Source: an uncultured delta proteobacterium
Lineage (GTDB): Bacteria > Desulfobacterota > Binatia > UBA9968
NCBI GenBank assembly: GCA_963816145.1
Contig: CAWFJP010000031.1
Span: forward strand, 32,001-96,000
Direction: 5' to 3'
DNA length: 64,000 bases
The notes beneath the pieces are model-generated. The model had not been told where the DNA came from and ran no database searches. It worked only from the letters and a program-made list of their open reading frames with translations. Of the stretch, positions 30,753-51,232 are shown one piece after another; positions within the stretch are counted from its first letter, which is position 1, and the number at the start of each line of letters is the position of its first letter. A program made the position numbers and the translations under genes.

Positions 30753-32168
30753 CTAGGACTGTGGCGTGGACTTCAGCTCGGTCATGTATGTGCGCATCTG
30801 GTTTTCAAACAACCGATGCAAGGCGGGTTCAAGCTGGTCTTCCGCCGGGAAGTCGATGCTTAAGGGATTGATATACTGATGGTCTTTATAGAGTTCGAAG
30901 TGGAGATGTGGACCGGTGGATCTGCCGGTGGAACCGACAAAGCCGATGATTTGTCCTTTGGTAACGCTCACGCCAGGCTGGATGCCTTCGGCAAAGCTGT
31001 CCAGATGGGCGTAACGGCTCGAGTAGGTTGAGTCATGTTTGATGTCGACCGCTTTGCCATAGCCGCCATTCCAACCTGCTTCGGCGATGATACCATCGCC
31101 GACGGATCGCACTGGTGTTCCTCTCTGCGCAGCAAAGTCGACGCCGGTATGGGGAAGGTTAGTGCGGAGAATGGGATGAAATCTCGACTCGGTAAAATGC
31201 GACGTGATGGCGCTAAATTCCAACGGGAAGCGGAGAAACGAGCGTGCCAAGCTTCGGCCCTCTTGATTATAATAACCGCCCACGCCTTGTTGCCGCTCAA
31301 AGTAGACCGCGGTGTATTTTTGTCCTGCGCTATTTAGTTCTGCCGCTAGGATGCGCAGTCCAGTTTTAGCTTCTTGGCCCTTGCGGCTGCGTTGCTCGTA
31401 AAGGATCTTGAAGTTATCGCCCTTACGGACCTCCTTTTCGAGATCGATGTCCCAGGTGAACAGATCGGCAAGCTGGGAGAGCAATGCCGGGTGGACGCCG
31501 GCTTTGCGGCCATCGTCGAAAAGTGAATTTTCGATGGATGCGCTAACCGTCTTTAATTCAACATCGAAGGGCTTTTCGCGGCGCTGGACGAAAATGCCGC
31601 GGATGCCTTTTTCCAAGGTTAGAGTGACGGAGTCATTTTGATCGATCTCTACGGCTGTCAGCTGGCCGCGCGTTAGCGACCCACGGCCGCGAATGAGCGA
31701 TTTGCTGAAGAAAAGTTGAGCCTCTTTCCCGGCTGGTAAGGTTTCGCTGCCGATATTGCGTGTCATGGTGCGCGCCCAGAGCAGACTTTCGGCCCTCGAC
31801 ACGTTATTCCGGGTCAAGACATCCGACAGCGTTTCTCCCGGCCGGACGCGGTAGCTCACTAGTTCACGTTTCTCCGAAAAATCGATGGCTGGTGGGCTTG
31901 GCTGCCGCAGTAGGGCGCCATGGGCCTGGCCCTTCGTCAGGCGCCTTACCGGTGCGCTAGCTTGAACGGAAGCCGGGGCTGGAGCCTGCTTACCGCGAAC
32001 AACCTGCTTCGGTCCCGGACGCTGCTTGGCTGCCTCGCTGTTTAGTGGAGCTACTGCGAGTGCGGCAACGATCAGCGAAGAGCCTAAAATTTTCGGTAAA
32101 ATCGAAGTTCCTGGCTGCTCAGGGCGACCATCGCCGAGCTGCCCAGCTGGTGTGATTTGGCAAGCCAT
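30753..32168 (-). CDS. M23 peptidoglycan endopeptidase (MepM-like, LysM)
   Basis: HTGVD, YAHL and STGPHLHFE zinc motifs. Confidence 0.92.
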   Translation of the reverse strand: MACQITPAGQLGDGRPEQPGTSILPKILGSSLIVAALAVAPLNSEAAKQRPGPKQVVRGKQAPAPASVQASAPVRRLTKGQAHGALLRQPSPPAIDFSEKRELVSYRVRPGETLSDVLTRNNVSRAESLLWARTMTRNIGSETLPAGKEAQLFFSKSLIRGRGSLTRGQLTAVEIDQNDSVTLTLEKGIRGIFVQRREKPFDVELKTVSASIENSLFDDGRKAGVHPALLSQLADLFTWDIDLEKEVRKGDNFKILYEQRSRKGQEAKTGLRILAAELNSAGQKYTAVYFERQQGVGGYYNQEGRSLARSFLRFPLEFSAITSHFTESRFHPILRTNLPHTGVDFAAQRGTPVRSVGDGIIAEAGWNGGYGKAVDIKHDSTYSSRYAHLDSFAEGIQPGVSVTKGQIIGFVGSTGRSTGPHLHFELYKDHQYINPLSIDFPAEDQLEPALHRLFENQMRTYMTELKSTPQS

Positions 32169-37556: not shown

Positions 37557-38249
37557 CTAATCGACGTAGGCGATGGGGTCGACGGCGCCGGCTTCTTGAA
37601 AGCCTTTGACGCGCAGCTGGCAGCTGTCGCATAAACCGCAAGCGCGGCCGTCTCTGCCAGGATCATAGCAGCTCCAGGTCAGACCATAGTCGACGCCGAG
37701 TTCGATGCCTTTGGCGATGATGGCGGCTTTGCTCATGTGCAGGAGCGGCGCGTGGATTCTCAAGAGGGTTTTGCCTTCGACGCCCGCCTTGGTGGCGAGA
37801 TTGGCCATATTCTCGAACGCACGGATATATTCCTCCCGGCAATCGGGATAACCGCTGTAGTCGAGCTGATTGGCGCCAAAAAAAATGTCGTCGGCGCCAA
37901 TCCGTTCGGCCAAGGCGAGACCGAAGGACAAAAAGATGGTGTTGCGCGCCGGCACGTAGGTTACGGGAATGCCATGGGAGATTGCCGTGGCGCTGCGGCT
38001 TTTGGGAACCTCGATTTGATCGGTGAGGGCCGAACCGCCGATGGCGCGCAGATCGAAGTCTATCACCAAGTGGCTGCTCGCGTTCAAGAAGTTAGCCACG
38101 CGCTTTGCCGCTTCGATCTCACAAGCATGACGCTGGCCGTAGCGGAAACTGAGCGCATGAAGTGTAAAGCCGGCCTGTTTGGCGATGGCCGCGGCGGTCG
38201 CCGAGTCGACGCCGCCGCTCAGCAATACGACGGCAGGTTTGTCAGACAT
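37557..38249 (-). CDS. queC: 7-cyano-7-deazaguanine synthase
   Basis: SGGVDS, YVPARN, GYPDCR and TWSCY..CGLCDSC. Confidence 0.96.
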
Positions 38250-38252
38250 AAA

Positions 38253-38726
38253 TCATGAGCGCGGAACTTTGCTGCCTTCCATCGGGTAGCGTTTTTCATA
38301 CCAGCCGACGATGCCTTCGTTCAGCACTTTCATATTGCGAAAACCGTTTTCGTAAAGAATGCCATAGGCCAGACTGGCCAGGTGATGGGGGCATGCTCAA
38401 TAGAGTACCACCGGTCGGTCGCGCGGAATGCTCTTTAGATACTCTTTGAACTCCCCAAGCGGCGCCGACTGGGCGCCCAAAATATGCACCTCGTCGAACT
38501 CCTCTTTGGTTCGGACATCAATCAACATCGGCTTGGCGCCGGTTTTGAGTTCGTCGACGAGTTGATCGATGCCGATAAACTCGGGTGTGACATCCGGCGG
38601 TAGAGTTTGTTGGGCAAATTCCGGATACTTCGAGGGATCGGCATGGGCGCCGGGCACGGTGATGAGGCTTAGACCGAGCGCAAGTCCAGCGGCAGTCAGA
38701 TACAGGTTCGATCGGATTCGCTTCAT
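38253..38726 (-). CDS. Exported rhodanese-domain selenoprotein (Sec at UGA 38397-38399, Y-U-A-C-P)
   Basis: ORF track stops at VVLY*, but the frame continues ACPHHLASLAYGILYENGFRNMKVLNEGIVGWYEKRYP, completing the rhodanese fold; UGA is at the catalytic Cys position; signal peptide present. Confidence 0.85.
38359..38394 (-). promoter_or_regulatory. Putative bacterial SECIS element
   Basis: Immediately 3' of the UGA: lower stem AUGCC/GGCAU and apical GGCCA-GUC-UGGCC, with a loop G about 23 nt from the UGA. Confidence 0.65.
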
Positions 38727-39595
38727 GGGTTTGCCCCCGGAGCGGTATATTTAGTCAGCTGTGCCAGCGTATCCAAGGATTGGACCCCGGTGGTGCGCTG
38801 TCCGTTAATAATCCAGGTCGGATAACTTTGGATATCCTTATCCTTGCAGACCGCCGCTTGTGGCGCTTGCGGGCCGCCGGGGCTGCATTCGACATAAGGG
38901 AGCCGTTTCACCGAACTGCCGAATAGTTTCTTTTGTTCCTGGCAATGCGGACACCATGACGCGCCGTAAAACTTCGCGTCGGACTTTGCCAGATGTTCGG
39001 CTAGCCCTTTGACCCATGGATCTTCCGGGCCGGGCGCGTCGCCCCAGTAGCCGGCGAAATAGAGATGGAGCGCGACGACGATCGCGGCACCGACCCCGGC
39101 GCTCTTGCCCAACCAGGGGCCCCAGGAAAAGTTCGGCAAGTTCGCCGGCTTTTGGAAGGTGGTCATGATAAAGATGACCGCCATGATGCCGAGGGAAGTG
39201 AGGCAGTAGGGACAGGTGGCCTTCAGATCGAAAATTGCCATAGAAGTCAGATATAGACTAAACAGCAAACCGAAGAGCGAGATCACCCAAGCCCAGCGCC
39301 ATTGATTGTCAGCGTAGCGGTTCCACGACACCGCAGCGAGCACCCCGTAGGTTAAAAATCCCCAGAAAGAAGTCGGCATGCCGAACAATGTCGACCATTT
39401 GCTGTTCAACACGACATCACAGCCGCTGCCCGCGACACAAAAGGCGACCAGTTTTTCCGCCCAGGCGGTGTAGGTGAGATAAGCCGACAAGATCATGCCC
39501 AGCGTTGACAGGGCAAAGAGCGGCCAGTTGGGTCCATCGCGCAAGAGCGCTTTTGCCGGTTGCTTACCTTTGGGGTTTTTCTTGTCGCTAGCCAT
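38723..39595 (-). CDS. VKOR-thioredoxin fusion (disulfide formation)
   Basis: C..GSGCDVVL, TCPYC and C-terminal FYGASWCPHC Trx domain. Confidence 0.92.
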   Translation of the reverse strand: MASDKKNPKGKQPAKALLRDGPNWPLFALSTLGMILSAYLTYTAWAEKLVAFCVAGSGCDVVLNSKWSTLFGMPTSFWGFLTYGVLAAVSWNRYADNQWRWAWVISLFGLLFSLYLTSMAIFDLKATCPYCLTSLGIMAVIFIMTTFQKPANLPNFSWGPWLGKSAGVGAAIVVALHLYFAGYWGDAPGPEDPWVKGLAEHLAKSDAKFYGASWCPHCQEQKKLFGSSVKRLPYVECSPGGPQAPQAAVCKDKDIQSYPTWIINGQRTTGVQSLDTLAQLTKYTAPGANP

Positions 39596-39598
39596 CGA

Positions 39599-40243
39599 TC
39601 ATCCTTTCAACAAGGTTTCTACGTCGTTTCTGAGCCGCGCCAGACTATCCATCGCGCGGCTATCGTAGTAACCGCGGATTTGCGCCTGCGGATCGATCAA
39701 GACAAAGCGCGGGCTGTGCGGAATCATGCCGTTACCTTCGAGGCTGTCGGGAAGCGTTGCGACGCTCAAGTGAAAGCCGTCGCGGACAAGCTTAATCACC
39801 TGATCTCGCTGTCCGGTGAGAAAGTACCAGCGTTGTCGATCGGCTTCATGTTTGTCGGCGTAGGCGCTTAGCACCTGCGGCGTGTCCCGCTCCGGATCGA
39901 CGCTGATGGAGACGAATTGGACGTTTGCTTTTGACGCGAACTCTTTTTGCAGCTTGGCCATGGTTGCTGTCTGCAACGGACAAGTGTCGGTGCAAGTGGT
40001 GTAAATAAAGTCAGCGATCCAAATCTTGCCGCGCAGTTCCGTCATGGCGACGTCTTTGCCGCTGCGTTCGGTGAGTGTGAAGTCCGGCACCGTGCCATAT
40101 TGCTTCAACCCGTCGTCGTCGGCGCGATCCGCCAAAACGACGCGCGGCGGCGGCCCGAGTTTCAGCCACAACACCGTGCCGAGGATCACGCCCAAGCCGA
40201 TTACGGCAGCACCTAGCAAGAAGAACCGTTTTGCGTCGTTCAT
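39599..40243 (-). CDS. SCO/SenC family protein (#1)
   Basis: FIYTTCTDTCP, SVDPERD and PHSPRF. Confidence 0.92.
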   Translation of the reverse strand: MNDAKRFFLLGAAVIGLGVILGTVLWLKLGPPPRVVLADRADDDGLKQYGTVPDFTLTERSGKDVAMTELRGKIWIADFIYTTCTDTCPLQTATMAKLQKEFASKANVQFVSISVDPERDTPQVLSAYADKHEADRQRWYFLTGQRDQVIKLVRDGFHLSVATLPDSLEGNGMIPHSPRFVLIDPQAQIRGYYDSRAMDSLARLRNDVETLLKG

Positions 40244-40402: not shown

Positions 40403-40963
40403 CTATCCCGGCGGAATCTTCTCGATCAGTTTTCCTTTCATGAAAAGCTCGTAGCCTCTTAGCGACAGCTCATAAGCGCGCGGCGAGTGGTCGGACATGT
40501 CGGAGACGACCAGGTCTAAAATTAGCAGCGTTTCGCTATTAGGCTGGATGTCGTAGTTTAGTTTGAACCGGCCGATGGTGTTTTTTACCGGGGTCTTGCG
40601 TTGGGCTTTCTTCAATATAGCGGTGATGCTTTTAATTTTTAAATGAAATGCGTCGAAGGCGCCGGCATCGATGGGCGCACGGAACACTTGGGCGGAGTTT
40701 TTGCCGAGATACTTGGTCAGATCGATCGGCTCCGAAGTGACAGCGAGATCTTTCCAGCCGGTCTGCCAGAACTTCAGGCCCGGTTTGGGGCTGACTGATA
40801 TTTTATCGATGGCGACGATGACTTTGTCAAAATCGCCGATGGCATCGCGGTGGTCTTTGATCCGGATTTCCAGGATGCCTTGTCCACGCTCGGCAGCTTG
40901 CGCGTGAATCGATGCGCCGAAGATCAACAGCGCTATGATTAGGATTTTTCGGATTCGAGCCAT
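40403..40963 (-). CDS. Exported protein, DUF4382-like
   Basis: Signal peptide; IRIKDH..IGDFDKVIVAI, IDLT and LILDL pattern; family call tentative. Confidence 0.55.
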   Translation of the reverse strand: MARIRKILIIALLIFGASIHAQAAERGQGILEIRIKDHRDAIGDFDKVIVAIDKISVSPKPGLKFWQTGWKDLAVTSEPIDLTKYLGKNSAQVFRAPIDAGAFDAFHLKIKSITAILKKAQRKTPVKNTIGRFKLNYDIQPNSETLLILDLVVSDMSDHSPRAYELSLRGYELFMKGKLIEKIPPG

Positions 40964-41559
40964 TTAATGTCTTTCAAAACTTCTTTGACGAGCCACTTGT
41001 CGCCGTAATAGTCGACGCGCCGCATGCCCTTGGCGTCGATCAGGGTTGTCAGGTTGGTGTGCTGGATCTGACCGTTGCCGTGGTCTTTGACGTTGACGCC
41101 AAAATTTTTCCAAACTTCGGCGATATCCTTTTGCGCACCGGTGAGGAAATGCCAGTGTTTCACGTCCGCTTTGAACGCCTCGGCGTAGGCTTTCAGCTTG
41201 GCCGGCGTGTCGCGTTTGGGGTCGGTGCTTATGCTGAGTAGTAAGTAATCCTCGCGCATTTCATCTTGGAGGGCGCGCTGAATCGCCGCGAAGTGGGCGC
41301 TGAAGAGCGGGCAGACATCCGGGCAGGTCGTGTAGACGAAAGTGACCAGAACGACTTTGCCGCTCGCCGCTTTGAAGTTAAACTTTTTGCCCGCTTGATC
41401 GGTCAGCGTGAAGCCCGGCGCGGCGACGTTGGTCTCGCGCCGGCCGATCTCGCCTTTCTTGGGCGGGATCGGAATATGCGCGCGCAGCTCAGTGGTCAAT
41501 AGACTCAGCGCAATGAGTACTGCGCCAAGGCCGATGCTACTTTTCGATTTGGAAGTCAT
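40939..41559 (-). CDS. SCO/SenC family protein (#2)
   Basis: FVYTTCPDVCP, STDPKRD and IQHT. Confidence 0.92.
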   Translation of the reverse strand: MTSKSKSSIGLGAVLIALSLLTTELRAHIPIPPKKGEIGRRETNVAAPGFTLTDQAGKKFNFKAASGKVVLVTFVYTTCPDVCPLFSAHFAAIQRALQDEMREDYLLLSISTDPKRDTPAKLKAYAEAFKADVKHWHFLTGAQKDIAEVWKNFGVNVKDHGNGQIQHTNLTTLIDAKGMRRVDYYGDKWLVKEVLKDIKWLESEKS

Positions 41560-42424
41560 AGGTGACTTTTAGCTGCTTGGACTCGTCGGGCAGGTCGCCG
41601 CGAACCAAGTAGGTCGACGAAAACTCTCGGTCTTCGCCCGGTTTCAATTGGACCGGTAGGAGCAATGCGCACTCGACCAGATCGAGATGTTGGCGTAGAT
41701 CTTGGGGTTCGACGCGGTGGACGATGCGGGTTGCGACGGCCTCTTTGGATAAATTGCGGACGCGGTAGGCGATGGTGAACAACTCGTTGGCACGCACGCT
41801 GGTTTCGCGGGTCAGCGGCGTAGCTTCGATAACTTTGTTACTTGGCACGGTGGCATCGTATTGCACTCGTAGGCCGGCGGCCCAGTCGAACAAGACGCGC
41901 CACAGGCCGTTTTCCTTGACCAGTGTGAGTTCTTCTTCGCCTTCGATGAACTTCAATTTGTCAGCGCGGCGCAGATCGTCGAGGGTGGTAAGAATCTCCT
42001 TTTGCTTCTGCGGCGGCAAAGCGTTGAGTTTGTCGGGGTCCCACTCGAGCAAGAGTGTCGACAAGTTATTGGCGTCGGGCAGCTTGACTTGGAATTTAAC
42101 CTTGGTTGCGGCGTTGTTTTCCACCGTGCCGACCTGACGCACCTCGATCATCTCGGCGAGTTTGGCGGCGACGGTCAAGGTGAAGCCGCTAAATGGCCCC
42201 TTTTCCTGGATATAGAGTTCCTCCGACTTGATCAGCCGGTCGCGGTTGGAGATCAGGCGATAAGCTTTCTTATGATCGTGGGCGTAGGCGCTCTTGAGAT
42301 AGGCGTTGATCGTCCGCACCGGCCCAGACTCGGCGCCGTTGCTGGATGCAGAGAGAAAGTAACAGGGCGGCAGCGCCAGCGCGATGGCGGCGGCCGCGGA
42401 CCAAAGTAGATTGGCGATGTTCAT
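41537..42424 (-). CDS. Exported two-domain protein, C-terminal CtaG/Cox11-like domain (paralog A)
   Basis: HRVEP...LVECALLLPVQLKPGEDREF...LKVTYDF resembles Cox11 but has a single Cys. Confidence 0.6.
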   Translation of the reverse strand: MNIANLLWSAAAAIALALPPCYFLSASSNGAESGPVRTINAYLKSAYAHDHKKAYRLISNRDRLIKSEELYIQEKGPFSGFTLTVAAKLAEMIEVRQVGTVENNAATKVKFQVKLPDANNLSTLLLEWDPDKLNALPPQKQKEILTTLDDLRRADKLKFIEGEEELTLVKENGLWRVLFDWAAGLRVQYDATVPSNKVIEATPLTRETSVRANELFTIAYRVRNLSKEAVATRIVHRVEPQDLRQHLDLVECALLLPVQLKPGEDREFSSTYLVRGDLPDESKQLKVTYDFQIEK

Positions 42425-43338
42425 GGTTTAACCGATTCCAGCGGCGACGAGGTAACTGCGTAAGTGACGCTTAACTGGCGCACCGTTTCGGGCAGGGTGC
42501 CGCGTAACAAGTAGGTTGTGACAAACTCTTCTTCTTTCCCCGGTTGCAAGCGTACCGGCAAGATGAAACCGCAGTCGACCAGATCGAGATAGTCGCGCAG
42601 CTCTTGCGGTTCGACCAAGTGGCCGATGCGCGTCGATAGGGTTTGTTTGCCGGTGTTTTTGATTTTCATGCCGACGCGAAAGACTTGCCCGGGACGCGAC
42701 GCGACTTGGGCTTGTTCGATCTTGATTTCCACAGGTGATGACGTCGGGATCGCCGGCTGGAAGGTCAACTTGACGCCGGCTGCCCAGTTTAAAAATACTT
42801 TCCAACCGCCGGCTTCTCTGACCAGGTTGAATGTCTCCTCGCCAGCCACCAAGGCGATGGTCTTGTCGCGTCGTTGCCGGTCGATGGAGTTGAGCAGCGT
42901 CTTGCGCTCGGTAGTGGATAGCGATTCCAGTCGTTCGCTGTCCCAATCGAGCATCAATGGGTTCAGTTTCGTCGCATCCGGCACGTTGGCTTTTACTTTC
43001 ACCACGGCGTGCTCCTGATCGATGACCAGTTCCAGAAGGCTAACGCTAACGCTCTGCGCCACGGCTCGCGCCGCTTCGAGGATAAAATCGCGAAACTCGC
43101 CGCGAGCGCGGCTGTAACTATGCACATCCCTTAGACGTTGGTCGGCGCTGGAAATTTGCTCGTAAGCGGTGCGAAAATCGCGGGCGTAAAGCGCCTTCAC
43201 ATATTTACCCAGGGCCGTAGATATTTCTTCGCGGTCATCAGCCCTGGCCGGTTGTGCCAAGAGCGCGACGAGAGCAATAACGGCGGCATATAACGGCAGA
43301 GACAGAGATCGGCGCGCCGAGAGGGGTTGTAATTCCAT
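42421..43338 (-). CDS. Exported two-domain protein, C-terminal CtaG/Cox11-like domain (paralog B)
   Basis: HLVEP...LVDCGFILPVRLQPGKEEEF...LSVTY; shared WAAG linker. Confidence 0.6.
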   Translation of the reverse strand: MELQPLSARRSLSLPLYAAVIALVALLAQPARADDREEISTALGKYVKALYARDFRTAYEQISSADQRLRDVHSYSRARGEFRDFILEAARAVAQSVSVSLLELVIDQEHAVVKVKANVPDATKLNPLMLDWDSERLESLSTTERKTLLNSIDRQRRDKTIALVAGEETFNLVREAGGWKVFLNWAAGVKLTFQPAIPTSSPVEIKIEQAQVASRPGQVFRVGMKIKNTGKQTLSTRIGHLVEPQELRDYLDLVDCGFILPVRLQPGKEEEFVTTYLLRGTLPETVRQLSVTYAVTSSPLESVKP

Positions 43339-43382
43339 CGAACTTCCAGGGGAGCCGCAGTTTAAGCCATCATGCCGGTGTG

Positions 43383-43970
43383 TCAGCGACCCTGAGCCGG
43401 GATCGTCCAGAGATACAGGGTGCGGCCTTCGACGCGCTCGATGCGGTCGGGTTTCCAGTCGCCCATGTCGAAGGCGTGGGAAACCACGCGGGAGCCGGGT
43501 TTGAGCTGACTTAGAATATTCGGTTTTAACTTTAAATTCACATCCGGCAGTAAATACATGGTGACTACCGATGCCGCAGAAAGATCGACCGTGAGAATGT
43601 CTTGCTGGCGAATTTCGGCCTGCTCCTGAACGCCGGCCTTGCGAATGTTGTCGCGCGACTGTTTCACCAGATCGCCGTCGATTTCAAAGCCCACGGCTTT
43701 GGCGCCTTTTTTCGCAGCGGTGATGACGATGCGGCCGTCGCCGGAGCCGAGATCGTAGACGACATCGCCCTTCTTGACGCCGGCGAGTTCGACCATCTTG
43801 TCGACGACCTCCTGTGGCGTCGGTACGAACGGCACGATCTTTTTGTTTTCAAAGATGCTGTCTTGGGCGAACGCAGCGCGGTCGAGCGGGTTAGGTGCAA
43901 TGACGGCAAAAGTCGATAGGACGCTCAATCCTAAGCTAGTAATTACTTTCGCGACAATTCGTTGCTTCAT
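43383..43970 (-). CDS. Class I SAM-dependent methyltransferase with signal peptide
   Basis: VPFVPTP, VYDLGSGDGR and VVTMYLLP; AAGGAGG RBS; N-terminal hydrophobic segment ending AFA-Q. Confidence 0.88.
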   Translation of the reverse strand: MKQRIVAKVITSLGLSVLSTFAVIAPNPLDRAAFAQDSIFENKKIVPFVPTPQEVVDKMVELAGVKKGDVVYDLGSGDGRIVITAAKKGAKAVGFEIDGDLVKQSRDNIRKAGVQEQAEIRQQDILTVDLSAASVVTMYLLPDVNLKLKPNILSQLKPGSRVVSHAFDMGDWKPDRIERVEGRTLYLWTIPAQGR

Positions 43971-44051
43971 GGAATGACCGGCCTCCTTAGGTACTCGTTG
44001 CAAGGCAATTAACCATAAAATTTCTACCGTAGCCAGATGGACCTAATGGGG

Positions 44052-44933
44052 TTATTTGACTTTGAATTCATAGGTTAATTTAATCTCGCGATGGCTTAGG
44101 CCCGCCGCGCTGTTGAGCTGGTAAGCCATGGCAAATTCCTTTTCTTGCTTCGCATCGAGCGTCGTCGGCGTCAGCAAGCCGCACTCGACGAGCTGCAGGT
44201 CCTCGGCTACTTCCGGCGGTTCAAACAAATGGCCGACGGTGAATATCACGGCGTGCGCGCCGGGATTTCTAATCTTAAGATTGACCAGAAACAGCTCATC
44301 GTTTTTGGCTATCACTTCGGTTGTGGTGAAGCGGATATCTAGCTTGTTTCCGTCGGCGAGTTTGCTCTGCAGAAGCACGCGCGTGCCGGCGGCCCAATCG
44401 AGAAAAACCTTCCATGCATCGGCTTCTTTGATGAGCTCGATCGTCTCTTGTCCCTCGATGTTGAGCAGCTTGCCGCTCTGATTGCGGCTGTCGAGTTCGG
44501 CCAAAAGTTCTTTTTGTTTCTCCGTCGGAAGGGCATTCAATCGATCCTCGTCCCAATGTAACAACAAATCATTCAGTTCGGCCGGCGCGGGGACGCGGTA
44601 ACCGACCTTAATAACGAGACTGTCACCGCTTTCTTGCCGGTCGATCAGCCAAACTTTCATGAAGCCGGCGAGTTTTCTCGAAACTTCAAGGGTGAAGCCG
44701 GTGTAAGCGCCCTGGCTATTCACAAAGTTCTGACGCGTTCGCTCCTGCCGGTCGGCAGATGAAAGATGGTCGTACGCCTGAGCGAAGTCGCGTGCGAAAG
44801 TCGCCCGCAGATAGCCGTCTACGGTCGCGAGCGGGCGATTCGATTCGCGACTCCTTGGTGGAATCAGTAGATAAACGCCAAGCGCCGATAAGACCGTCAG
44901 CAAGGCTGCGAGGATAAGTTTGCCACGATACAT
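44052..44933 (-). CDS. Membrane-anchored two-domain protein, C-terminal CtaG/Cox11-like domain (paralog C)
   Basis: HLFEP...LVECGLLTPTTL...IKLTYEF; shared WKVFLDWAAG. Confidence 0.6.
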   Translation of the reverse strand: MYRGKLILAALLTVLSALGVYLLIPPRSRESNRPLATVDGYLRATFARDFAQAYDHLSSADRQERTRQNFVNSQGAYTGFTLEVSRKLAGFMKVWLIDRQESGDSLVIKVGYRVPAPAELNDLLLHWDEDRLNALPTEKQKELLAELDSRNQSGKLLNIEGQETIELIKEADAWKVFLDWAAGTRVLLQSKLADGNKLDIRFTTTEVIAKNDELFLVNLKIRNPGAHAVIFTVGHLFEPPEVAEDLQLVECGLLTPTTLDAKQEKEFAMAYQLNSAAGLSHREIKLTYEFKVK

Positions 44934-44994
44934 AAGATGTTGATCGACGCCGCGAATCGCCAACGGGTGCGCCGCATTGTTGATCAAACCGCAT

Positions 44995-45564
44995 TCAACG
45001 CTGAATGCCAACCTTCTTGATCGCTTCTTTGACGCGTTCCGGCGAAATCGGTCCTAGGACGACGTCCCGGATAATGCCTTGTCCATCGACGAAAAAAGTC
45101 GCCGGTGGACCGAAGATGCGGTAAGACCGCTTCACGGTGCTGTTCAGATCGAGCGCGATCGGGAACACCAGCTTGGCCTCCTTCGCGTATTCAATGACTG
45201 CGGCGCGGGTGTCCTCGACGGCGATGCCAAGCACCTGATAACTGCCGCCGGCCTTTGCCGCGAAATCGTTGATCAGCGGCATCTCTTCGCGGCAGGGATC
45301 GCACCAGCTGGCGAAGAAATTAATTAACAGCGGCTTGCCGCGAAATGTCTCGAGTCCGACAGATTTGCCTTCCAAGGTTTTCAAGTCGAAGGGAATGGCA
45401 TTGCCGCCGATGGCGGGCGCCGTGTTTTGCGGTGCCGGGTGCACATGTTGCGCCCAGGTAGGATTGGCCATCAAAGCCATGCCGATTGCGCAGCTGGCAA
45501 AAAGCCGTGCCGGCCCGGTCCACCGCGGGTTCCTTGAGGTACTTTTTTGCGTGGGCATAATCAT
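44995..45564 (-). CDS. TlpA/ResA-type thiol-disulfide oxidoreductase
   Basis: NFFASWCDPCREEMP; signal peptide followed by QHVH. Confidence 0.9.
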   Translation of the reverse strand: MIMPTQKSTSRNPRWTGPARLFASCAIGMALMANPTWAQHVHPAPQNTAPAIGGNAIPFDLKTLEGKSVGLETFRGKPLLINFFASWCDPCREEMPLINDFAAKAGGSYQVLGIAVEDTRAAVIEYAKEAKLVFPIALDLNSTVKRSYRIFGPPATFFVDGQGIIRDVVLGPISPERVKEAIKKVGIQR

Positions 45565-46886
45565 TGTCGCACCGCCGCGCTTCTGAGCACGACACGCGAG
45601 TCTTCATCGTCGGTTTCAGTCCAGGCGACATGAATTAGATTTTTCTTGAGCGCCAACACGGGTCGGCTGGCGTTCCCTTTGGCACTGCTGAGCTGTTGAA
45701 TCGGACTCCAGGTTCGGCCATCGGCGGCGAGAACCCTCAGGTAGATTTGGGCTCGATTGTTGGCGTCGAGGTTGCTCCAGGCGAAGTAGACCTGATCGTC
45801 GTCGCCGACGATCAGGTTATTATAGAGTGTTTCCGGCGCCGTGTTGGCGTGGATCATTGTCCTCGGCGCGAATGTCTTGCCGCCGTCCTTCGAAACGCTG
45901 TAGTAAATCCCCGCCTCTTGTTCCCTCCGGCCTTGGGTGAACCAGCTGACGTGCAGTTGGCCGCGACTGTCGCGGCCAATGCTTGGGCCGGAGTGGGGAC
46001 AGGAGGGGACTTGCCAGCCGTCGTTGCTGATTTCTATCGGGGCGCCGAAGCTGGCGCCGCCGTCGGTCGATTTGCGCAACACATGGTTGCGAATTTTGTT
46101 AGCATCGACTTCGCGGTCGACCATATAAACGGTTTTGCCGCCATCGGCGAAGTCGATGCCCAGCTTGCAACATTCGCACAGACCGTCGCCGACTTGATAA
46201 TTCTTTGTCAGTGCCTGACCGCGAGAATCGATCTTCATCAAATACAACTGGCGTGGCTTGGGATTATCGATCCGGCGGTCGATCCAGGCGACAAGCAAGT
46301 TGCCATCTGGCATGGTTTCAATGATCGGAAAACGGCCGGCGTCTTGAACTTCGTTCAACGTGCGTGGCGGCGTGAAGCCGCCGTTGCCGTCTTCAATTGC
46401 AAAGCGAATATTGGCTCGGGTCTTGTCGCCTTTCGCACCGGGGATGGACCAGACGGCAAAGATTCTTCCACTGCGGTCGAAGGCTAGTTTCGGCCCATTT
46501 TCTTCGCCTTGGACGGCTTCGACGCTACCGTTGACCCTTATCGCCGCGGTCCAAGTCTTCCCGCCGTCGCTGGATGACGCGATTAATGCATTGCGCATCG
46601 GCGATGGTGCGCGATCGCCGCCCATCGCTCCGTGGCCAGAGTGTGGTTTTCCGCCTGGCCAAGGCGTGTCGTGGTCTTCGGTCCAGACGGCAAACAATCT
46701 CCCGTCGAGGCTATAGCGCAAAAATGGCGTCGAAGGATTTGCTTCAGACCTGCCAATCGCGACCTCAGGCCCAAACCTGAGCTGCACCGATTGTGTTGTC
46801 ACCGGCGGTTGTGCGGGTTGAGCGCCGCAACCAATACAGACGATGAGAAAACTGAACAATGACCATCTACCGACAGCCCTTTTCAT
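45561..46886 (-). CDS. BNR/Asp-box beta-propeller lipoprotein
   Basis: Lipobox IGC; Asp-boxes SSDGGKTW, STDGGASF and SKDGGKTF; CECC and CPHSGP motifs. Confidence 0.85.
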   Translation of the reverse strand: MKRAVGRWSLFSFLIVCIGCGAQPAQPPVTTQSVQLRFGPEVAIGRSEANPSTPFLRYSLDGRLFAVWTEDHDTPWPGGKPHSGHGAMGGDRAPSPMRNALIASSSDGGKTWTAAIRVNGSVEAVQGEENGPKLAFDRSGRIFAVWSIPGAKGDKTRANIRFAIEDGNGGFTPPRTLNEVQDAGRFPIIETMPDGNLLVAWIDRRIDNPKPRQLYLMKIDSRGQALTKNYQVGDGLCECCKLGIDFADGGKTVYMVDREVDANKIRNHVLRKSTDGGASFGAPIEISNDGWQVPSCPHSGPSIGRDSRGQLHVSWFTQGRREQEAGIYYSVSKDGGKTFAPRTMIHANTAPETLYNNLIVGDDDQVYFAWSNLDANNRAQIYLRVLAADGRTWSPIQQLSSAKGNASRPVLALKKNLIHVAWTETDDEDSRVVLRSAAVRQ

Positions 46887-46925
46887 GCGGGACTCCTGCC
46901 CAATTTAATGAATGAGTACAATAAT

Positions 46926-46968
46926 TCAGGGCGTTTACCACAAATGCATTTGTCGTAAACGAGCCTGA
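46926..46968 (-). promoter_or_regulatory. Long imperfect stem-loop between the RAPP leader gene and the BNR operon
   Basis: Minus strand TCAGG-CT-CGTTTAC-G-ACAAA-TGCA-TTTGT-G-GTAAACG-C-CCTGA. Confidence 0.65.
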
Positions 46969-47003
46969 CGAGTTGGCGAAAATAATTCGGAGTGACGAGA
47001 ACT

Positions 47004-47399
47004 TTAAATTAGTGGTGGTGCGCGTTGAGAAAAAGGCGAGGGGTTGAACGACGAGGCTTCGGTTATTGCTTGGTCAACTTGGTGTGTGACAGCATGTTCG
47101 ACGGCGACGAAGGCAAATGTCTGCACGAGTGAGGCGTGGGCATTTTGCGCAACCGAAAGGACAAAGCAATCGGCCGGCTTTGATGTTGGGCGCTTGTGAT
47201 GGTCGCTGTGACTGTGCTCGGTAGTATCGGTATGATCATGAGTTTGTTCGGCAGCGACAGACTGCTCAGCTGCGGGAAATTGCTCGAAAAAGTGGTGCAC
47301 CCGATGCGGTGCCGACGCCGCCAGAAAAAATCCGAAAGCGGCGACTATGCTCAAATACAAGCCGCGTACGCTTGCGGAAACTGGTTTTGGGGCGTTCAT
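47004..47399 (-). CDS. His-rich DUF2946/CruR-like leader protein with C-terminal RAPP arrest motif
   Basis: N-terminal TM, 12 His, one Cys, ends PSPFSQRAPPLI*. Confidence 0.75.
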   Translation of the reverse strand: MNAPKPVSASVRGLYLSIVAAFGFFLAASAPHRVHHFFEQFPAAEQSVAAEQTHDHTDTTEHSHSDHHKRPTSKPADCFVLSVAQNAHASLVQTFAFVAVEHAVTHQVDQAITEASSFNPSPFSQRAPPLI

Positions 47400-47459
47400 G
47401 GTCTGTGTGACTAATAGTAATCCGACCGCGGTGGCAACTCAAGCCATTCTTGGGTCCGA

Positions 47460-47870
47460 TTATTTGACTGTGAACTCCACCGTGTCGCGGGCAGCCAATT
47501 CGGTTTGGTGATCGCTGGCGACCACCCGCAGTTCCAAAATGTGTTTTCCTGGTTTGATGCCGTTCAGTGTGCCTTTGGCGCTTTCGAACATGCCCATCAA
47601 CTCGCCATCAACGTAGGCGTGGGCGTGATGGCCGCGTTTGCCTTTGGTGAGCTTGAACTCGACCGGGACTTTGTCGCCCTTGACGACCTCGCCTTTGGTG
47701 GGTGCGAGGATCTTGATGCTCGCGCCCTCGGCGGGCTGAAGCGGTGCGGCGGATGATTTCACCGGCGCGCTTTTGACTGCCGGTTGCTCTTGGCCATGTT
47801 GATGCTGGGCCTGGGCCATGACCGGTAAGGGGGTCAAAAATAGAATCAATATACCGTTCCGTATCACCAT
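47460..47870 (-). CDS. Small exported His-rich putative metal-binding protein
   Basis: Signal peptide, QHQHG, GHHAHAYVDG, PGKHILEL and SDH. Confidence 0.7.
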   Translation of the reverse strand: MVIRNGILILFLTPLPVMAQAQHQHGQEQPAVKSAPVKSSAAPLQPAEGASIKILAPTKGEVVKGDKVPVEFKLTKGKRGHHAHAYVDGELMGMFESAKGTLNGIKPGKHILELRVVASDHQTELAARDTVEFTVK

Positions 47871-48001
47871 TCGATTATTCTCCCTTGATGCAATTTCACC
47901 ATATTGGGCCCATTGACGAAAGCCGCGCGTGTATTTCATTTCTCTTAGACGTGTTAAAGAGCGTAGCGCTTTTGGCTCCCTTCAAGAAATTCTGCCGTTT
48001 G

Positions 48002-48821
48002 TCAGCGCCGTAAGCGGAACCGATAAACGAATGTAAACTCGGCTGGAACATTCTGTCCGTCTGCTTGCGCCGGTTCGAAGCGCGATTGCTTGACCGCTTT
48101 GAGCGCTTCTTCATCAAAACCGCCGCCGCCGCTTTTGACAATTTCCGCCTTGGTCACTTTGCCTTCCGGGTCGACTTCAATTCTCAATGTTACATCGCTT
48201 TCGAGTCCGGCGCGCAGCGCCATCGCCGGATAGGTGGCGCGCACGGTTTGAATCGGCTTGGCTTCGCGGTTGGTTCGCAACACGGTCTGCGCGGGTAACC
48301 CAGGGCGTACCGGAGCCGCGGCCCAAACCCGAAGCCGCCGTGCCGCCGCCACCGCCGGCGGTGCCAGTACCCGGAACAACCCCGACCTCGCCTTTGCCAA
48401 AGAGGTTTCCGGCACCGGCTTCACTGCCGCCGCCTTCGGTTCTTGCTGTGGACGGAGTTGGCGAACTTTCCGTTCGCGCAACCGGGGTCGATTTTGCCTC
48501 AGCAGCTTTCATGCTTTCATCTTTCGGTAAAGCAGCGGGTGCTGGAACCGGCTTTTCAATTTTGACGATTTCGGGTTTGGCGGCAGCTTTGGTTTCTTTG
48601 ATTTTCTCCGGCTTAGCGGGCAGCGGTTTTTTTACTTCGGGGTCCGGCTCGACCTTTTTCACCGACACCGGTGGAGCCGAAGGCGGTAAATCGACCAGTC
48701 CGATGGGCTGAAATTCCTGGCGGCGAAGACCGTTTTGAACTAACGCGGAAGCGAGCGCCAACACCAGCAGGTGAACGACCAGTGACGAGGCAAATGGCAA
48801 CTTGAGCGAATCATCTCTCAT
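48002..48821 (-). pseudogene. tonB: Energy transducer TonB, split by a +1 frameshift near 48303
   Basis: N-terminal TM with SLVVH and Pro/Lys linker in one frame; TonB C-domain (YPAMA...GFDEEALKAVKQSRFEPA) in another; junction ACG CCC TGG GTT. Confidence 0.8.
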
Positions 48822-49231
48822 GGCCGACTGTCTTTGGGTTTGATCGCGATGGCCATCTTGGCGACTCCGGCTTGGCGCGCCGCGTCCATGATCTCGACGA
48901 CGACGCCATGCTCGACTTTTTCATCAGCGTTGATCAGCACCAGCAAGTCCGGATTCTTCGCCAGCCGGGATTTCAAGATTTCGCCAACTTGGGCGCGCGG
49001 CACATCCTGCTTATCGATTGCGATCGTACCGTCTGGCTTGATCGTTACTGCGGCGCTTTCGTTGGGCGTTTGCTGGCCGGTGGCGGCTTTCGGCAGATTT
49101 ACCGGCAGGCCGCCATAGCGGGCCATGGATAACGTCGAGATCATGAAGAAGACCAAGAGAAAAAAGATCGTATCGATCATCGGGATGATCTCGATCCGAG
49201 CTTTTTTGATTTCACGCCGGCGCAAGCGCAT
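48818..49231 (-). CDS. exbD: Biopolymer transport protein ExbD
   Basis: IIPMIDTIFFLLVFFM, VNLPKA and INAD. Confidence 0.92.
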   Translation of the reverse strand: MRLRRREIKKARIEIIPMIDTIFFLLVFFMISTLSMARYGGLPVNLPKAATGQQTPNESAAVTIKPDGTIAIDKQDVPRAQVGEILKSRLAKNPDLLVLINADEKVEHGVVVEIMDAARQAGVAKMAIAIKPKDSRP

Positions 49232-49833
49232 TACTTGTTCTCACTGTCAGCCAGAATCAGTTCCAGGCGCGAAGCATAGTATTCGATCTCTTCCATTTCT
49301 TTCTCGGCGCGGTTGGAAAAATAGTTGTACGGAACCAGCGTGAGAATCGCTATCAGCAAGCCGGTTGCGGTGGCGATCAGCGCTTCGGCAACGCCGCCGG
49401 TGACGGCGTGGGGTTGGCCGATGCCAACCTGAGACATGATGCCGAAAGAACCGATCATGCCAGTGACAGTGCCGAGCAGGCCAAGCAATGGCGCCAGAGT
49501 GATGATCGTGTCCAGTATCGTCAACCGCTGCTTGAGCACCGGCACTTCCTTTTGCGCGGCAACTTCAAGGGCTTTGGTGACGGCATTGCGGTGCATCAAA
49601 CCGGACGCCATCACGCGCACCAATGGCGCATCGGCTTGTCGCGTCGATTCGACGGCTTTGCTCAATTCCCCGCGTTCGACCAACTCGAGCAGGGTTTCTG
49701 CTAACTGCCGGTCGCCGATCCTGCGCCAATAGAGCCAACGTTCGATGACGACGGTCAATGCAATTATGGAGCAGGCGAGCAGCGGCACCATGACAGGCCC
49801 GCCTTTGATGACGATATCGATGAAGTCAAACAT
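49231..49833 (-). CDS. exbB: MotA/TolQ/ExbB proton channel
   Basis: APLLGLLGTVTGMI and GVAEALIATATGL. Confidence 0.92.
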   Translation of the reverse strand: MFDFIDIVIKGGPVMVPLLACSIIALTVVIERWLYWRRIGDRQLAETLLELVERGELSKAVESTRQADAPLVRVMASGLMHRNAVTKALEVAAQKEVPVLKQRLTILDTIITLAPLLGLLGTVTGMIGSFGIMSQVGIGQPHAVTGGVAEALIATATGLLIAILTLVPYNYFSNRAEKEMEEIEYYASRLELILADSENK

Positions 49834-49865
49834 TGAGTGATTGATTCTCCCGTAAAAAATTCAAA

Positions 49866-51134
49866 CTATGAATGCGCCGGTTCCGCTCTCAGCGGCCGAA
49901 GCGTCCTCACCGGTTCGCGGAAGAACAGGAGCAACGTCATGCCAAGAAAATAGGAACAAGAGACTACGCCAAAGGTGGTTTGAAATCCCGAAGTGCTCAT
50001 CAGCCAGCCGGCCAGCAGTGTCCAAAACGGCGACATGATGAAACCGATGCAATAGTACAGACTGAAGGCGGCATCGAGGATTTCTTCATCGGTCACGTCG
50101 GTGAGCAGAGCTTGGGTCAAGGTTTGGCGCGAAGTGACGACCGCACCGTAGAGAATCAGATTGGCGAACAAGCTGATGGACACATGGTCTTGCAGGCTGA
50201 GCCAGACTGTCGATAGCCCCGACAGCAACAGGGACATTTGCAGCGTGCGCGTGCGGTGAAACCGATCGGAAACCCAACCCCATGCCATGGGTCCGAGCAG
50301 GCCGCCGACTTGAATCAGCGTGAACAAGAACGCCGCATAGGCCATATCGACTTTCAGATCATTGACGAAGTGAGGCACGATGTAGGTTTCATTGATTCCC
50401 TGGCCGAGCCCTGCGCCGCCGACCATCAGGACCAGTGAGATCAGCAGAATGTTTTTGTTCTTGAGACAGCGCTTGTAGGCGTCCAGACCGACAGGAGCCA
50501 ATTTCGATTTTTGGATTTGCGCCGGATTCAATCGAATGGTGTCGCGCAAGGCGAGACAGGCGAAGCCCATGAGAACACTGGGAATACCGACGATCCAAAA
50601 AATCGCTCGCCAGCCGATGCGAGCAACCAGCACCGCGGCGAAGATTGGCGCGACCAGGCTACCGAGATTGGCCGCGGTCGAGTGAAACGCCAACGCCCGA
50701 CCGCGCGCTTTGCCAAAATAGGACGCCAAGGCGGTCGAGCCGACCGGATGCTGCGGGCTGGTGCCGATGCCGCCGAGGACGCGGGTCACCATGATATATG
50801 GGTAGCTGTTGGCAAAGCCGGTGGCGACGACGGAAATTCCCAGCAGAATATTACCGACCCCCAAGATGATGCCGCGCCGCACGTATGGGACGATGAATCC
50901 AAAAAAGGCCTGAAGAAAATTACCGACAAAACCGTAGACCGCGGTGATCGCGCCGATGGCGACAAAGCCGATGCCAAGATCGCGCATCATCAGTGGATAA
51001 AGCACGCCGAGCATGGACGACTGGAAATGATTCAAGAAGTGGGCGCCGCAGACAATTGAAAAAATTGCCGTCTTGCCTGACGGATCGGTCGCCGGCATAT
51101 TGCCGGCGGTGTTGTTGATGATTTTAGTTGTCAC
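49866..51134 (-). CDS. MFS transporter
   Basis: ~12 TM; HFLNH, QHP and GWVSDRF MFS motif. Confidence 0.85.
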   Translation of the reverse strand: MTTKIINNTAGNMPATDPSGKTAIFSIVCGAHFLNHFQSSMLGVLYPLMMRDLGIGFVAIGAITAVYGFVGNFLQAFFGFIVPYVRRGIILGVGNILLGISVVATGFANSYPYIMVTRVLGGIGTSPQHPVGSTALASYFGKARGRALAFHSTAANLGSLVAPIFAAVLVARIGWRAIFWIVGIPSVLMGFACLALRDTIRLNPAQIQKSKLAPVGLDAYKRCLKNKNILLISLVLMVGGAGLGQGINETYIVPHFVNDLKVDMAYAAFLFTLIQVGGLLGPMAWGWVSDRFHRTRTLQMSLLLSGLSTVWLSLQDHVSISLFANLILYGAVVTSRQTLTQALLTDVTDEEILDAAFSLYYCIGFIMSPFWTLLAGWLMSTSGFQTTFGVVSCSYFLGMTLLLFFREPVRTLRPLRAEPAHS

Positions 51135-51232
51135 CTCTAATTATCTCCAATAGCAGAATCGCCAAGCGCGCGGATCCAGCACCGCTGACGATAGTTTGCC
51201 GTTAGCTAGACTTCGCTGCATTATTCGATCGC

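Follow-up and report, generated by a model that had tools for sequence, protein, structure and literature searches.

A predicted exported rhodanese selenoprotein with a U-x-C motif, encoded beside a VKOR-thioredoxin gene in Binatia

Results

An open reading frame that continues past an in-frame TGA

We analysed a 64,000-nucleotide stretch of DNA (the window; positions 32,001 to 96,000 of contig CAWFJP010000031.1, assembly GCA_963816145.1) from an uncultured delta proteobacterium of the Binatia, in whose genome (G000; 7.8 Mb, 31 contigs) the window is C31:32001-96000. On the minus strand of the window, an open reading frame for a rhodanese-fold protein starts with the ATG at 38726 and runs for 109 codons up to an in-frame TGA at 38399-38397 (...PVVLY-TGA-ACPHH...), past which the frame stays open for 47 codons (ACPHHLASLAYGILYENGFRNMKVLNEGIVGWYEKRYPMEGSKVPRS) until a second TGA at 38255-38253. 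The results below indicate that the first TGA is read as selenocysteine (Sec, U), giving the product MKRIRSN...PVVLY-U-ACPHHLASLAYGILYENGFRNMKVLNEGIVGWYEKRYPMEGSKVPRS, with the active-site motif LY-U-A-C-P-H-H; we refer to the gene as the Sec-rhodanese gene. Its start overlaps the stop of a VKOR-thioredoxin (VKOR-Trx) gene (39595..38723) as ATGA, its second stop lies 3 nt from the ATG of queC (38249), and a SCO gene lies upstream of the VKOR-Trx gene after a 3-nt gap. An earlier, sequence-only reading of the window had described a frame broken at the rhodanese catalytic Cys, the 47-codon continuation ending 3 nt short of queC, and the overlap with a VKOR-Trx gene that follows a SCO gene, and all of these are present as claimed. 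The features of the gene are as follows:

38253..38726, minus strand: Sec-rhodanese gene, 157 sense codons, with predicted Sec as codon 110 and the terminal stop TGA at 38255-38253
38640..38726, minus strand: codons 1-29 (MKRIRSNLYLTAAGLALGLSLITVPGAHA), a predicted signal peptide that would be cut behind AHA, as read from the sequence
38397..38399, minus strand: UGA read as Sec (U110), at the catalytic-Cys position of the rhodanese fold by alignment to solved rhodaneses
38391..38393, minus strand: TGC codon of Cys112, the second residue of the U-x-C-P motif

Export of the product had also been proposed, and the expected features are visible by eye: a basic n-region (MKRIRSN), a hydrophobic core, and a putative cut between AHA and DPSKYP. 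The mature N-terminus, (A)DPSKYP, is kept in orthologs. We predict that the Sec-rhodanese is exported, with a signal peptide of the Sec type (here the export pathway rather than the amino acid).

The in-frame TGA is conserved in an order that has the selenocysteine machinery

All four components of the Sec machinery (selA, selB, selC and selD), the presence of which in this genome had been proposed as a check, are found in G000, each above its curated cut-off, with scores of 616.5 bits for selA, 417.4 bits for selB, 380.1 bits for selD, and 74.2 bits for the tRNA-Sec. The genes selA, selB and selD form a cluster at C30:562492-566803, outside the window, and the tRNA-Sec gene lies ~10 kb off, at C30:576761-576851. 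Across the order, 110 of 123 genomes contain selA, with every one of the 27 genera represented, and the 8 genomes that have the rhodanese and no selA match are assemblies of 30-850 contigs with an estimated completeness of 60-96%. The selD gene of G000 also carries an in-frame TGA (KAAG-U-AAK).

The TGA is conserved across orthologs. Among 41 genomes (G000 and 40 relatives), 29 of 29 best matches, ranging from 99 to 42% identity and coming from three families of one order, have an in-frame TGA, at the identical place in the motif LY-U-[AQE]-C-P-[HR]-H. Order-wide, a search at E <= 1e-18 gives 86 match rows from 83 of 123 genomes. Of these rows, 83, over 21 genera, have the TGA, its position having been read directly in 42 loci and counted as an in-frame stop in the remaining rows. 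The 3 match rows that lack a TGA are a variant in genome G510 that has neither Sec nor Cys and two pieces in genome G493, one of which, upon inspection, is a more distant CAC paralogue. (No claim made here rests solely on the unpublished genomes G005, G476 and G479, or on G493.) In a 401-genome sample of the phylum, the gene is present only in G000 and in one other genome, also in the Sec form. Named records with the gene are metagenome-assembled genomes labelled Candidatus Binatia, delta proteobacterium or Thermodesulfobacteriota.

Cys forms exist and are rare. When metagenomes were scanned with a Cys-form alignment as the seed, 80 loci came back: 78 have U-x-C (TGA) and 2 have C-x-C (TGC; L218 and L232). 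In the protein database, Cys stands at the Sec column in P0061, P0122, P0123 and P0153 (LYCACP[HR]H) and, in a second subfamily described below, in P0275 and P0284. Thus, the alignment of homologs that had been suggested as a further check gives the expected picture, in which the TGA is kept down to ~40% identity and occasional YCxCP forms occur. Two database records have another residue at the Sec position: P0017 has W, presumably a gene caller's reading of TGA as Trp, and P0274 has R, either a real CGA variant or an error.

The frame downstream of the TGA is under purifying selection

If the TGA were a true stop (a nonsense mutation, an assembly error, or the end of a truncated gene), the downstream frame would be a relic. 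Gene callers do treat the TGA as a stop, and the second stop of the gene is likewise TGA. Comparison of orthologous coding sequences gives the opposite answer: the ratio of nonsynonymous to synonymous substitution rates (dN/dS) is 0.105 in codons +13..+44 after the TGA, vs. 0.171 in the 60 codons upstream. The comparison set comprised 40 distinct orthologous coding sequences; 55 Sec sequences were kept from 62 loci, with L152 and L153 dropped because they are not Sec forms and with L070, L084 and L085, among others, dropped because the motif pattern matched upstream. We conclude from these alignments that the 32 codons beyond the hairpin described in the next section are under purifying selection, i.e., that they are translated.

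The sequence at the locus is also reproducible. Long contigs from three DNA runs of three further studies span the gene with no listed difference across 38253-38726, and near-identical DNA of the locus is present in contigs of many soil and wetland runs. Together with the downstream dN/dS of 0.105, the Sec machinery in the genome, and the TGA in 83 of 86 order-wide match rows and 78 of 80 metagenome loci, these identical assemblies lead us to reject a pseudogene or assembly error, and a true stop is improbable in the extreme. RNA runs contain only small shares of the sequence; one of them, X15, covers parts of queC and of the VKOR-Trx gene, but just 33 nt of the Sec-rhodanese gene, and that at lower likeness, which speaks neither for nor against expression.

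At 38359-38405, several short metagenome records of other organisms match only the 40-47-nt stretch from UGA to hairpin, and the assembly of one run breaks there, as expected for an ultra-conserved segment common to strains.

A small hairpin downstream of the UGA is conserved at synonymous sites and covaries

The sequence-only reading had placed a hairpin with a G-bearing loop directly after the UGA. The G-bearing loop (GUY) is there; the core of the hairpin, however, begins 17 nt downstream, and only a weaker lower stem begins at the UGA itself, at its GA. The two elements of this candidate selenocysteine insertion sequence (SECIS) are:

38367..38379, minus strand: SECIS core hairpin GGCCA-GUC-UGGCC, starting 17 nt after the UGA and encoded by L-A-S-L-A
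38355..38398, minus strand: lower stem GAG.CAUGCC/GGCAU.CUU around the core hairpin, kept in G000-type (YG) sequences

The lower stem is lost in more distant orthologs of families f2 and f3. Bacterial SECIS elements have a G in the first two loop positions and a distance of 16-37 nt from UGA to loop, and the AGUCU loop here resembles what we take to be the SelB-bound GGUCU loop of Moorella.

The case for this element comes from conservation. In the 40-sequence set, synonymous codons at the hairpin are frozen at Ala +7 (GCC in 39 of 39) and Ser +8 (AGT in 38 of 38) and nearly frozen at Leu +6 (CTG in 36 of 39) and His +5 (CAC in 38 of 39); four- and six-fold codons elsewhere have a pairwise synonymous diversity of 0.5-0.75. 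Correspondingly, the synonymous difference per site (pS) is 0.285 in codons +4..+12, vs. 0.64-0.69 elsewhere. The sole variation tolerated in the hairpin is C/U in the loop and GCC/GCU at the closing pair, which gives G-C or G-U.

The case also comes from covariation. Among 99 distinct Sec sequences, the 5 core pairs are formed in 99, 90, 99, 99 and 99, with compensatory states at the innermost pair (AU 69, CG 29, GU 1), the next pair (CG 97, UA 2) and the outer pair (GC 86, GU 12, UG 1). The covariation score is 0.182, compared with 0.073 +/- 0.008 in 500 shuffles, none of which reached as high, and it exceeds the scores of all slid registers; figures of this kind are prone to inflation by relatedness among sequences. 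The results show that a SECIS-like element, as proposed for this gene, is conserved at synonymous sites and covaries.

The hairpin also appears to accompany the UGA. At the corresponding place in the Cys-form loci L218 and L232 there is no hairpin. In the curated sister family NF041203, the UGA comes two codons later (LYCAU), and a hairpin, GUGCC-NGNNU-GGCAC, follows it at a distance of 16 nt in all 9 loci inspected; because UGA and hairpin are both shifted by two codons, we conclude that the hairpin travels with the UGA. In the selD gene of G000, a triloop hairpin of 5 bp lies 15 nt past the UGA.

Several points count against the hairpin as a SECIS element. Because much of the covariation, namely the change from AU to CG, is essentially one split between two subfamilies, independent covariation events are few; 9 of the 99 sequences have a mismatch in one core pair; and an Rfam scan of 38240-38460 (E up to 10) found no SECIS family, its one match being a chance match to a snoRNA. 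The hairpin is just 5 bp, and as its single-sequence fold is no stabler than shuffles (z = -0.23), stability alone gives no evidence, and the weight rests on conservation and covariation.

We find, in sum, the features by which a selenoprotein gene is recognized: a conserved UGA with coding sequence downstream, Cys homologues, a SECIS-type hairpin, and Sec machinery. On the strength of these comparative data, we put the probability that the UGA at 38399-38397 encodes selenocysteine, and that this is a genuine selenoprotein gene, at about 0.97. SelB and tRNA-Sec would be guided to this UGA by the small hairpin 17 nt downstream.

A second subfamily, and a family held in databases as fragments

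The metagenome loci L183, L186 and L189-L231 (e.g., L197:2920-3339) form a second Sec subfamily, with the motif FY-U-T-C-P-H-A-L-[AS]-R-G-A-S and with its own hairpin, CUGGCCC-GGG-GGGCCAG, which has 7 bp and a GGG loop and lies in a register identical to that of the first subfamily. In all seven loci examined, the gene adjoins TldD/PmbA-type genes (on both sides in L183, L197 and L227), and MoeA lies upstream of the string in 6 of the 7.

Database records of both subfamilies are short. The first subfamily has 528 protein matches in soil and wetland metagenomes, and 118 of the best 120 are stored as proteins of 89-111 amino acids, which bears out the earlier proposal that standard annotation misses the gene. 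The second has 721 database matches, 116 of the best 120 having 84-91 amino acids, mostly as 89-amino-acid fragments. Because the databases hold almost only fragments, soil selenoproteomes are undercounted and the whole family is misannotated. The Sec-rhodanese would thus be a widespread selenoprotein of soil bacteria, present in 83 of 123 genomes of its order and cut short by gene callers.

The product has a rhodanese fold with a non-canonical active-site loop

The Pfam Rhodanese model (PF00581) spans residues 56-144, across the TGA, with 56.4 bits (cut-off, 22.2), and in HMMER alignments residue 110 falls on the catalytic Cys of 6mxv (YCGSGFRS), 3tp9 (YCRTGGRS) and 6pfz. An AlphaFold2 model computed on a 42-row alignment has a mean predicted local distance difference test score of 90.0 and a predicted template-modelling (TM) score of 0.84, and its best Foldseek matches in the PDB are single-domain rhodaneses, namely BH2092 (3nhv), 6mxv, Alr3790 and 3gk5 (TM ~0.7, E about 1e-8). 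The (nearly) invariant columns are the rhodanese D-V-R and H-I-x-G-A motifs and, in the numbering of alignment A3, Y83, U/C84, C86 and P87; the codon for Cys112 is TGC in 37 and TGT in 3 of the 40 orthologous sequences. The G510 variant (L152; G510:C39:15224-15661) has lost both redox residues (YGNRPRH for YUACPHH) and has kept the remaining domain. The active-site loop, U-A-C-P-H-H-L-A-S, is not the canonical one: it is one residue longer than CRxGxR[ST] and has neither its Arg nor its Gly.

Curated models do not reach this form. Among NCBIfam models, NF041203 ('rhodanese_LYCAU') scores best, with 55.2 bits, below its cut-off of 115; the scores with PspE models (26.2 vs. 102 and 24.4 vs. 126.3 bits), with GlpE (17.7 vs. 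102 bits) and with the TsoB model NF045694 (15.4 vs. 805 bits) lie far below the cut-offs, and no curated NCBIfam model is reached by the U-x-C-P form.

Relation to known rhodanese selenoproteins

Rhodanese selenoproteins as a kind are already known. A 2026 review of more than 110 prokaryotic selenoprotein families (PMC13188914) gives, in its tables and passages on the subject, five rhodanese forms, UxxS, UxxG, CxU (NF041203), UxxG, and UxxxxU (TsoB), of which the corresponding part of PMC9312934 gives the same first three. A U-x-U variant from Olavius symbionts is reported in a passage of PMC1976440, and a rhodanese-related sulfurtransferase is listed among the Sargasso Sea selenoproteins in PMC1088965. 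A U-x-C rhodanese is absent from the tables and passages of these four papers, and PMC1794560 names rhodanese in its reference list alone. No paper linking a rhodanese with VKOR in periplasmic disulfide chemistry was found in the literature searched. Relative to the literature and the NCBIfam models searched, three features are new: a Sec in the catalytic place that has a partner Cys, the existence of two subfamilies with a SECIS each of their own, and the linkage to VKOR-Trx and SCO.

The closest relative among these forms, NF041203, is likewise an exported single-domain rhodanese that occurs in the same phylum, a selenoprotein with a Y-x-A-x-P frame whose UGA is followed, after 16-17 nt, by a small hairpin. 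It differs in that Sec and Cys are swapped, L-Y-C-A-U-P there as opposed to L-Y-U-A-C-P here, and in that a search of its neighbourhoods for VKOR or SCO found neither. No NF041203 member was found in G000 or in 14 sampled genomes (13 of the same class, 1 of the same family). Two NF041203 loci, L238 and L240, adjoin DUF547 proteins and two others adjoin an amidase and an FMN reductase, with no evident common context.

The other known forms are less similar. The first, second and fourth forms in the review table (UxxS, UxxG) and the Olavius U-x-U variant resemble the Sec-rhodanese in that a rhodanese domain has Sec in place of its catalytic Cys, but the first, second and fourth forms, going by their listed motifs alone, differ from the U-x-C-P form in having no Cys at +2. 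TsoB (the fifth form, NF045694), as presented in the same table, resembles the Sec-rhodanese in that a Sec rhodanese domain is physically tied to a membrane thiol-disulfide electron carrier; there, however, the domain is UxxxxU and is fused to a DsbD-like carrier of reductant, whereas here it is encoded by a separate gene beside VKOR, an oxidant. Exported C-x-C-P rhodaneses of the Cys form (P0122, P0153, P0061, P0201, P0173, P0199, P0231, P0243, P0259 and others) have the same architecture and motif, at 35-55% identity, but have no UGA.

PspE of E. coli, also a periplasmic single-domain rhodanese, differs from the Sec-rhodanese in that it has the canonical loop, with one Cys and without Sec. 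Overexpression of PspE reportedly restores disulfide bond formation in a dsbA mutant, to go by a title of Chng et al. from 2012 that PMC5403849 cites, and that title suggests that a rhodanese can act in periplasmic thiol oxidation.

U110 and Cys112 as a candidate redox pair

Across these families, Sec occurs at either or both of the variable positions of Y-[C/U]-A-[C/U]-P, and because of this the two residues probably pair as a selenenylsulfide. We propose that U110, as the catalytic nucleophile, and the near-invariant Cys112 would cycle via an intramolecular selenenylsulfide, so that the Sec-rhodanese would be a periplasmic redox module rather than a plain sulfurtransferase; that U110 and Cys112 are a redox pair we consider fairly probable. 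U-x-C, together with its C-x-U and U-x-U relatives, would then be a natural series showing a two-residue redox centre in the rhodanese cradle.

A periplasmic sulfurtransferase would use the same residues differently. U110 would carry a persulfide (Se-S-) derived from thiosulfate or polysulfide and hand it on, in the manner of PspE-type rhodaneses, Cys112 would serve as an acceptor or for protection, and the adjacency to VKOR would be operon convenience. The canonical rhodanese fold and the placement of Sec where the catalytic Cys normally stands are consistent with this, other rhodanese selenoproteins are named sulfurtransferases in the relevant passages of the reviews, and VKOR-less contexts exist, including L177 with an adjoining two-domain rhodanese and cytochrome c. 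Several features argue otherwise: the loop U-A-C-P-H-H-L, longer by one residue than CRxGxR[ST] and without Arg or Gly; the near-invariance of the second Cys; the ability of Sec to occupy either of the two sites in sister families, suggestive of a redox centre made of two residues; and the PspE and GlpE model scores, which are far under the cut-offs. We regard a sulfurtransferase role as unlikely, while giving it some weight.

The gene is almost always attached to the only VKOR-Trx gene of the cell

The neighbours of the Sec-rhodanese gene in the window are:

38723..39595, minus strand: VKOR with C-terminal thioredoxin-like domain (PF07884, 90.3 bits, residues 24-146 of 290; TCPYC and WCPHC read in the translation)
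39599..40243, minus strand: SCO1/SenC copper-chaperone-type thioredoxin-fold protein (PF02630, 106.2 bits), first gene of the SCO-VKOR-SecRhd string
37557..38249, minus strand: queC (Pfam QueC), a neighbour conserved in the genus and not beyond

Within the genus the gene order is SCO - VKOR-Trx - Sec-rhodanese - queC - DUF58, and in family f3 it is SCO - VKOR-Trx - Sec-rhodanese; in genus g5, VKOR is absent and SCO directly adjoins the Sec-rhodanese gene. The metagenome loci L167 and L179 repeat the full string, and in L161, SCO, cytochrome c and methyltransferase genes lie beside the gene. The Sec-rhodanese gene lies <=300 nt from a VKOR-Trx gene in 76 of 82 loci (81 genomes), a count that includes the three unpublished genomes and is 73 of 79 without them. 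The results uphold the proposed link to VKOR-Trx and SCO, the latter usually being upstream.

On the basis of the overlapping genes, the Sec-rhodanese is probably co-expressed with the quinone-linked VKOR-thioredoxin fusion, and it may exchange redox equivalents with the thioredoxin domain of the fusion. Bacterial VKOR, as described in the part of PMC5403849 that treats it, is a functional equivalent of DsbB that passes electrons from a thioredoxin-like partner to quinone. We suggest that the thioredoxin domain of VKOR would oxidise the U-C pair, which would then oxidise a substrate, in the setting of a cluster rich in copper-chaperone-type thiol proteins (SCO, Cox11-like, TlpA-like). We give redox coupling of the Sec-rhodanese to VKOR, for which gene adjacency is the guide, a chance slightly short of even.

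A number of observations weigh against such coupling. VKOR-Trx is present in 109 of 123 genomes, nearly always once, and is apparently housekeeping, and 31 genomes have VKOR-Trx without the Sec-rhodanese, including all 12 of genus g276; given these counts, the Sec-rhodanese gene is an accessory one, and where it occurs it nearly always adjoins the single VKOR-Trx gene. The second subfamily lies between TldD/PmbA genes near MoeA, with no VKOR neighbour; another subgroup adjoins an O-methyltransferase and a two-domain rhodanese; and the LYCAU genes stand among unrelated genes. VKOR-Trx remains the neighbour even of the redox-dead G510 variant. Finally, VKOR is an oxidant, and a cycle needing reduction would require another partner. 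The near-obligate place beside the only VKOR-Trx gene of the cell nonetheless provides a testable link from selenium to periplasmic thiol oxidation or to copper-protein assembly.

A more specific proposal is that VKOR and the Sec-rhodanese would form a flavin-free, quinone-linked periplasmic relay for the oxidation of small sulfur species or of paired thiols in copper chaperones. Disulfides in C-x-C motifs are both strained and oxidising, and Mia40 works with a CPC motif; VKOR might keep the strained U-x-C selenenylsulfide oxidised, with either sulfide, converted to a bound persulfide, or SCO thiols as the target. This relay is speculative, and we think it unlikely in this exact form; if it is true, aerobic soil bacteria would have a selenium-based analogue of DsbA or Mia40, or a miniature sulfide:quinone oxidoreductase.

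A metal-handling island upstream of the Sec-rhodanese gene

Upstream of the Sec-rhodanese gene, window positions 40403-54887 are a metal-handling island. The window has three SCO1/SenC paralogues:

39599-40243: SCO1/SenC, beside VKOR-Trx
40939-41559: second SCO1/SenC
54195-54887: third SCO1/SenC

Upstream of the VKOR-side SCO gene, the island has genes for a DUF4382 protein, the second SCO, two Cox11-like proteins, a methyltransferase and a TlpA-like redoxin, and further along for ExbB/ExbD, an MFS transporter, a TonB-dependent receptor, a NikR-family regulator and the third SCO. It also holds a gene for a BNR-repeat protein.

This setting raises the alternative of a role in metal delivery to periplasmic or membrane enzymes: the U-x-C pair would bind or reduce a soft metal, with copper as the likeliest, in the service of the SCO and Cox11-like chaperones. 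The presence within 38.2-54.9 kb of three SCO1/SenC proteins, two Cox11-like proteins, a TlpA-like redoxin, a TonB-dependent receptor with ExbBD, and a NikR-family regulator is consistent with such a role, as is the direct adjacency of SCO where VKOR is absent (L044, L045) and of SCO and cytochrome c in L161; metal-binding selenoproteins, one of them a U-x-C Cu/Zn transporter, appear in the portion of PMC13188914 that lists them. Against it, the two His that follow C-P vary across the wider family (H/R/N at the first, H/E/A/S at the second), the second subfamily and the LYCAU family have no copper context, and no rhodanese-fold copper protein appeared in any search of this analysis. We consider a copper role doubtful.

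Further TGA-bearing rhodanese-domain matches

Two further rhodanese-domain matches in G000, outside the window (C5:214033-214341 and C31:513177-513419), have one in-frame TGA each, and more TGA-bearing matches occur at G014:C14:7560, G006:C290:4114, G024:C226:2648, G011:C514:11473, G016:C92:2498, G018:C10:50873 and G017:C17:6312, several of them in open frames of ~335-386 amino acids. Judged by their in-frame TGAs, these are probably further rhodanese-type selenoproteins of these bacteria.

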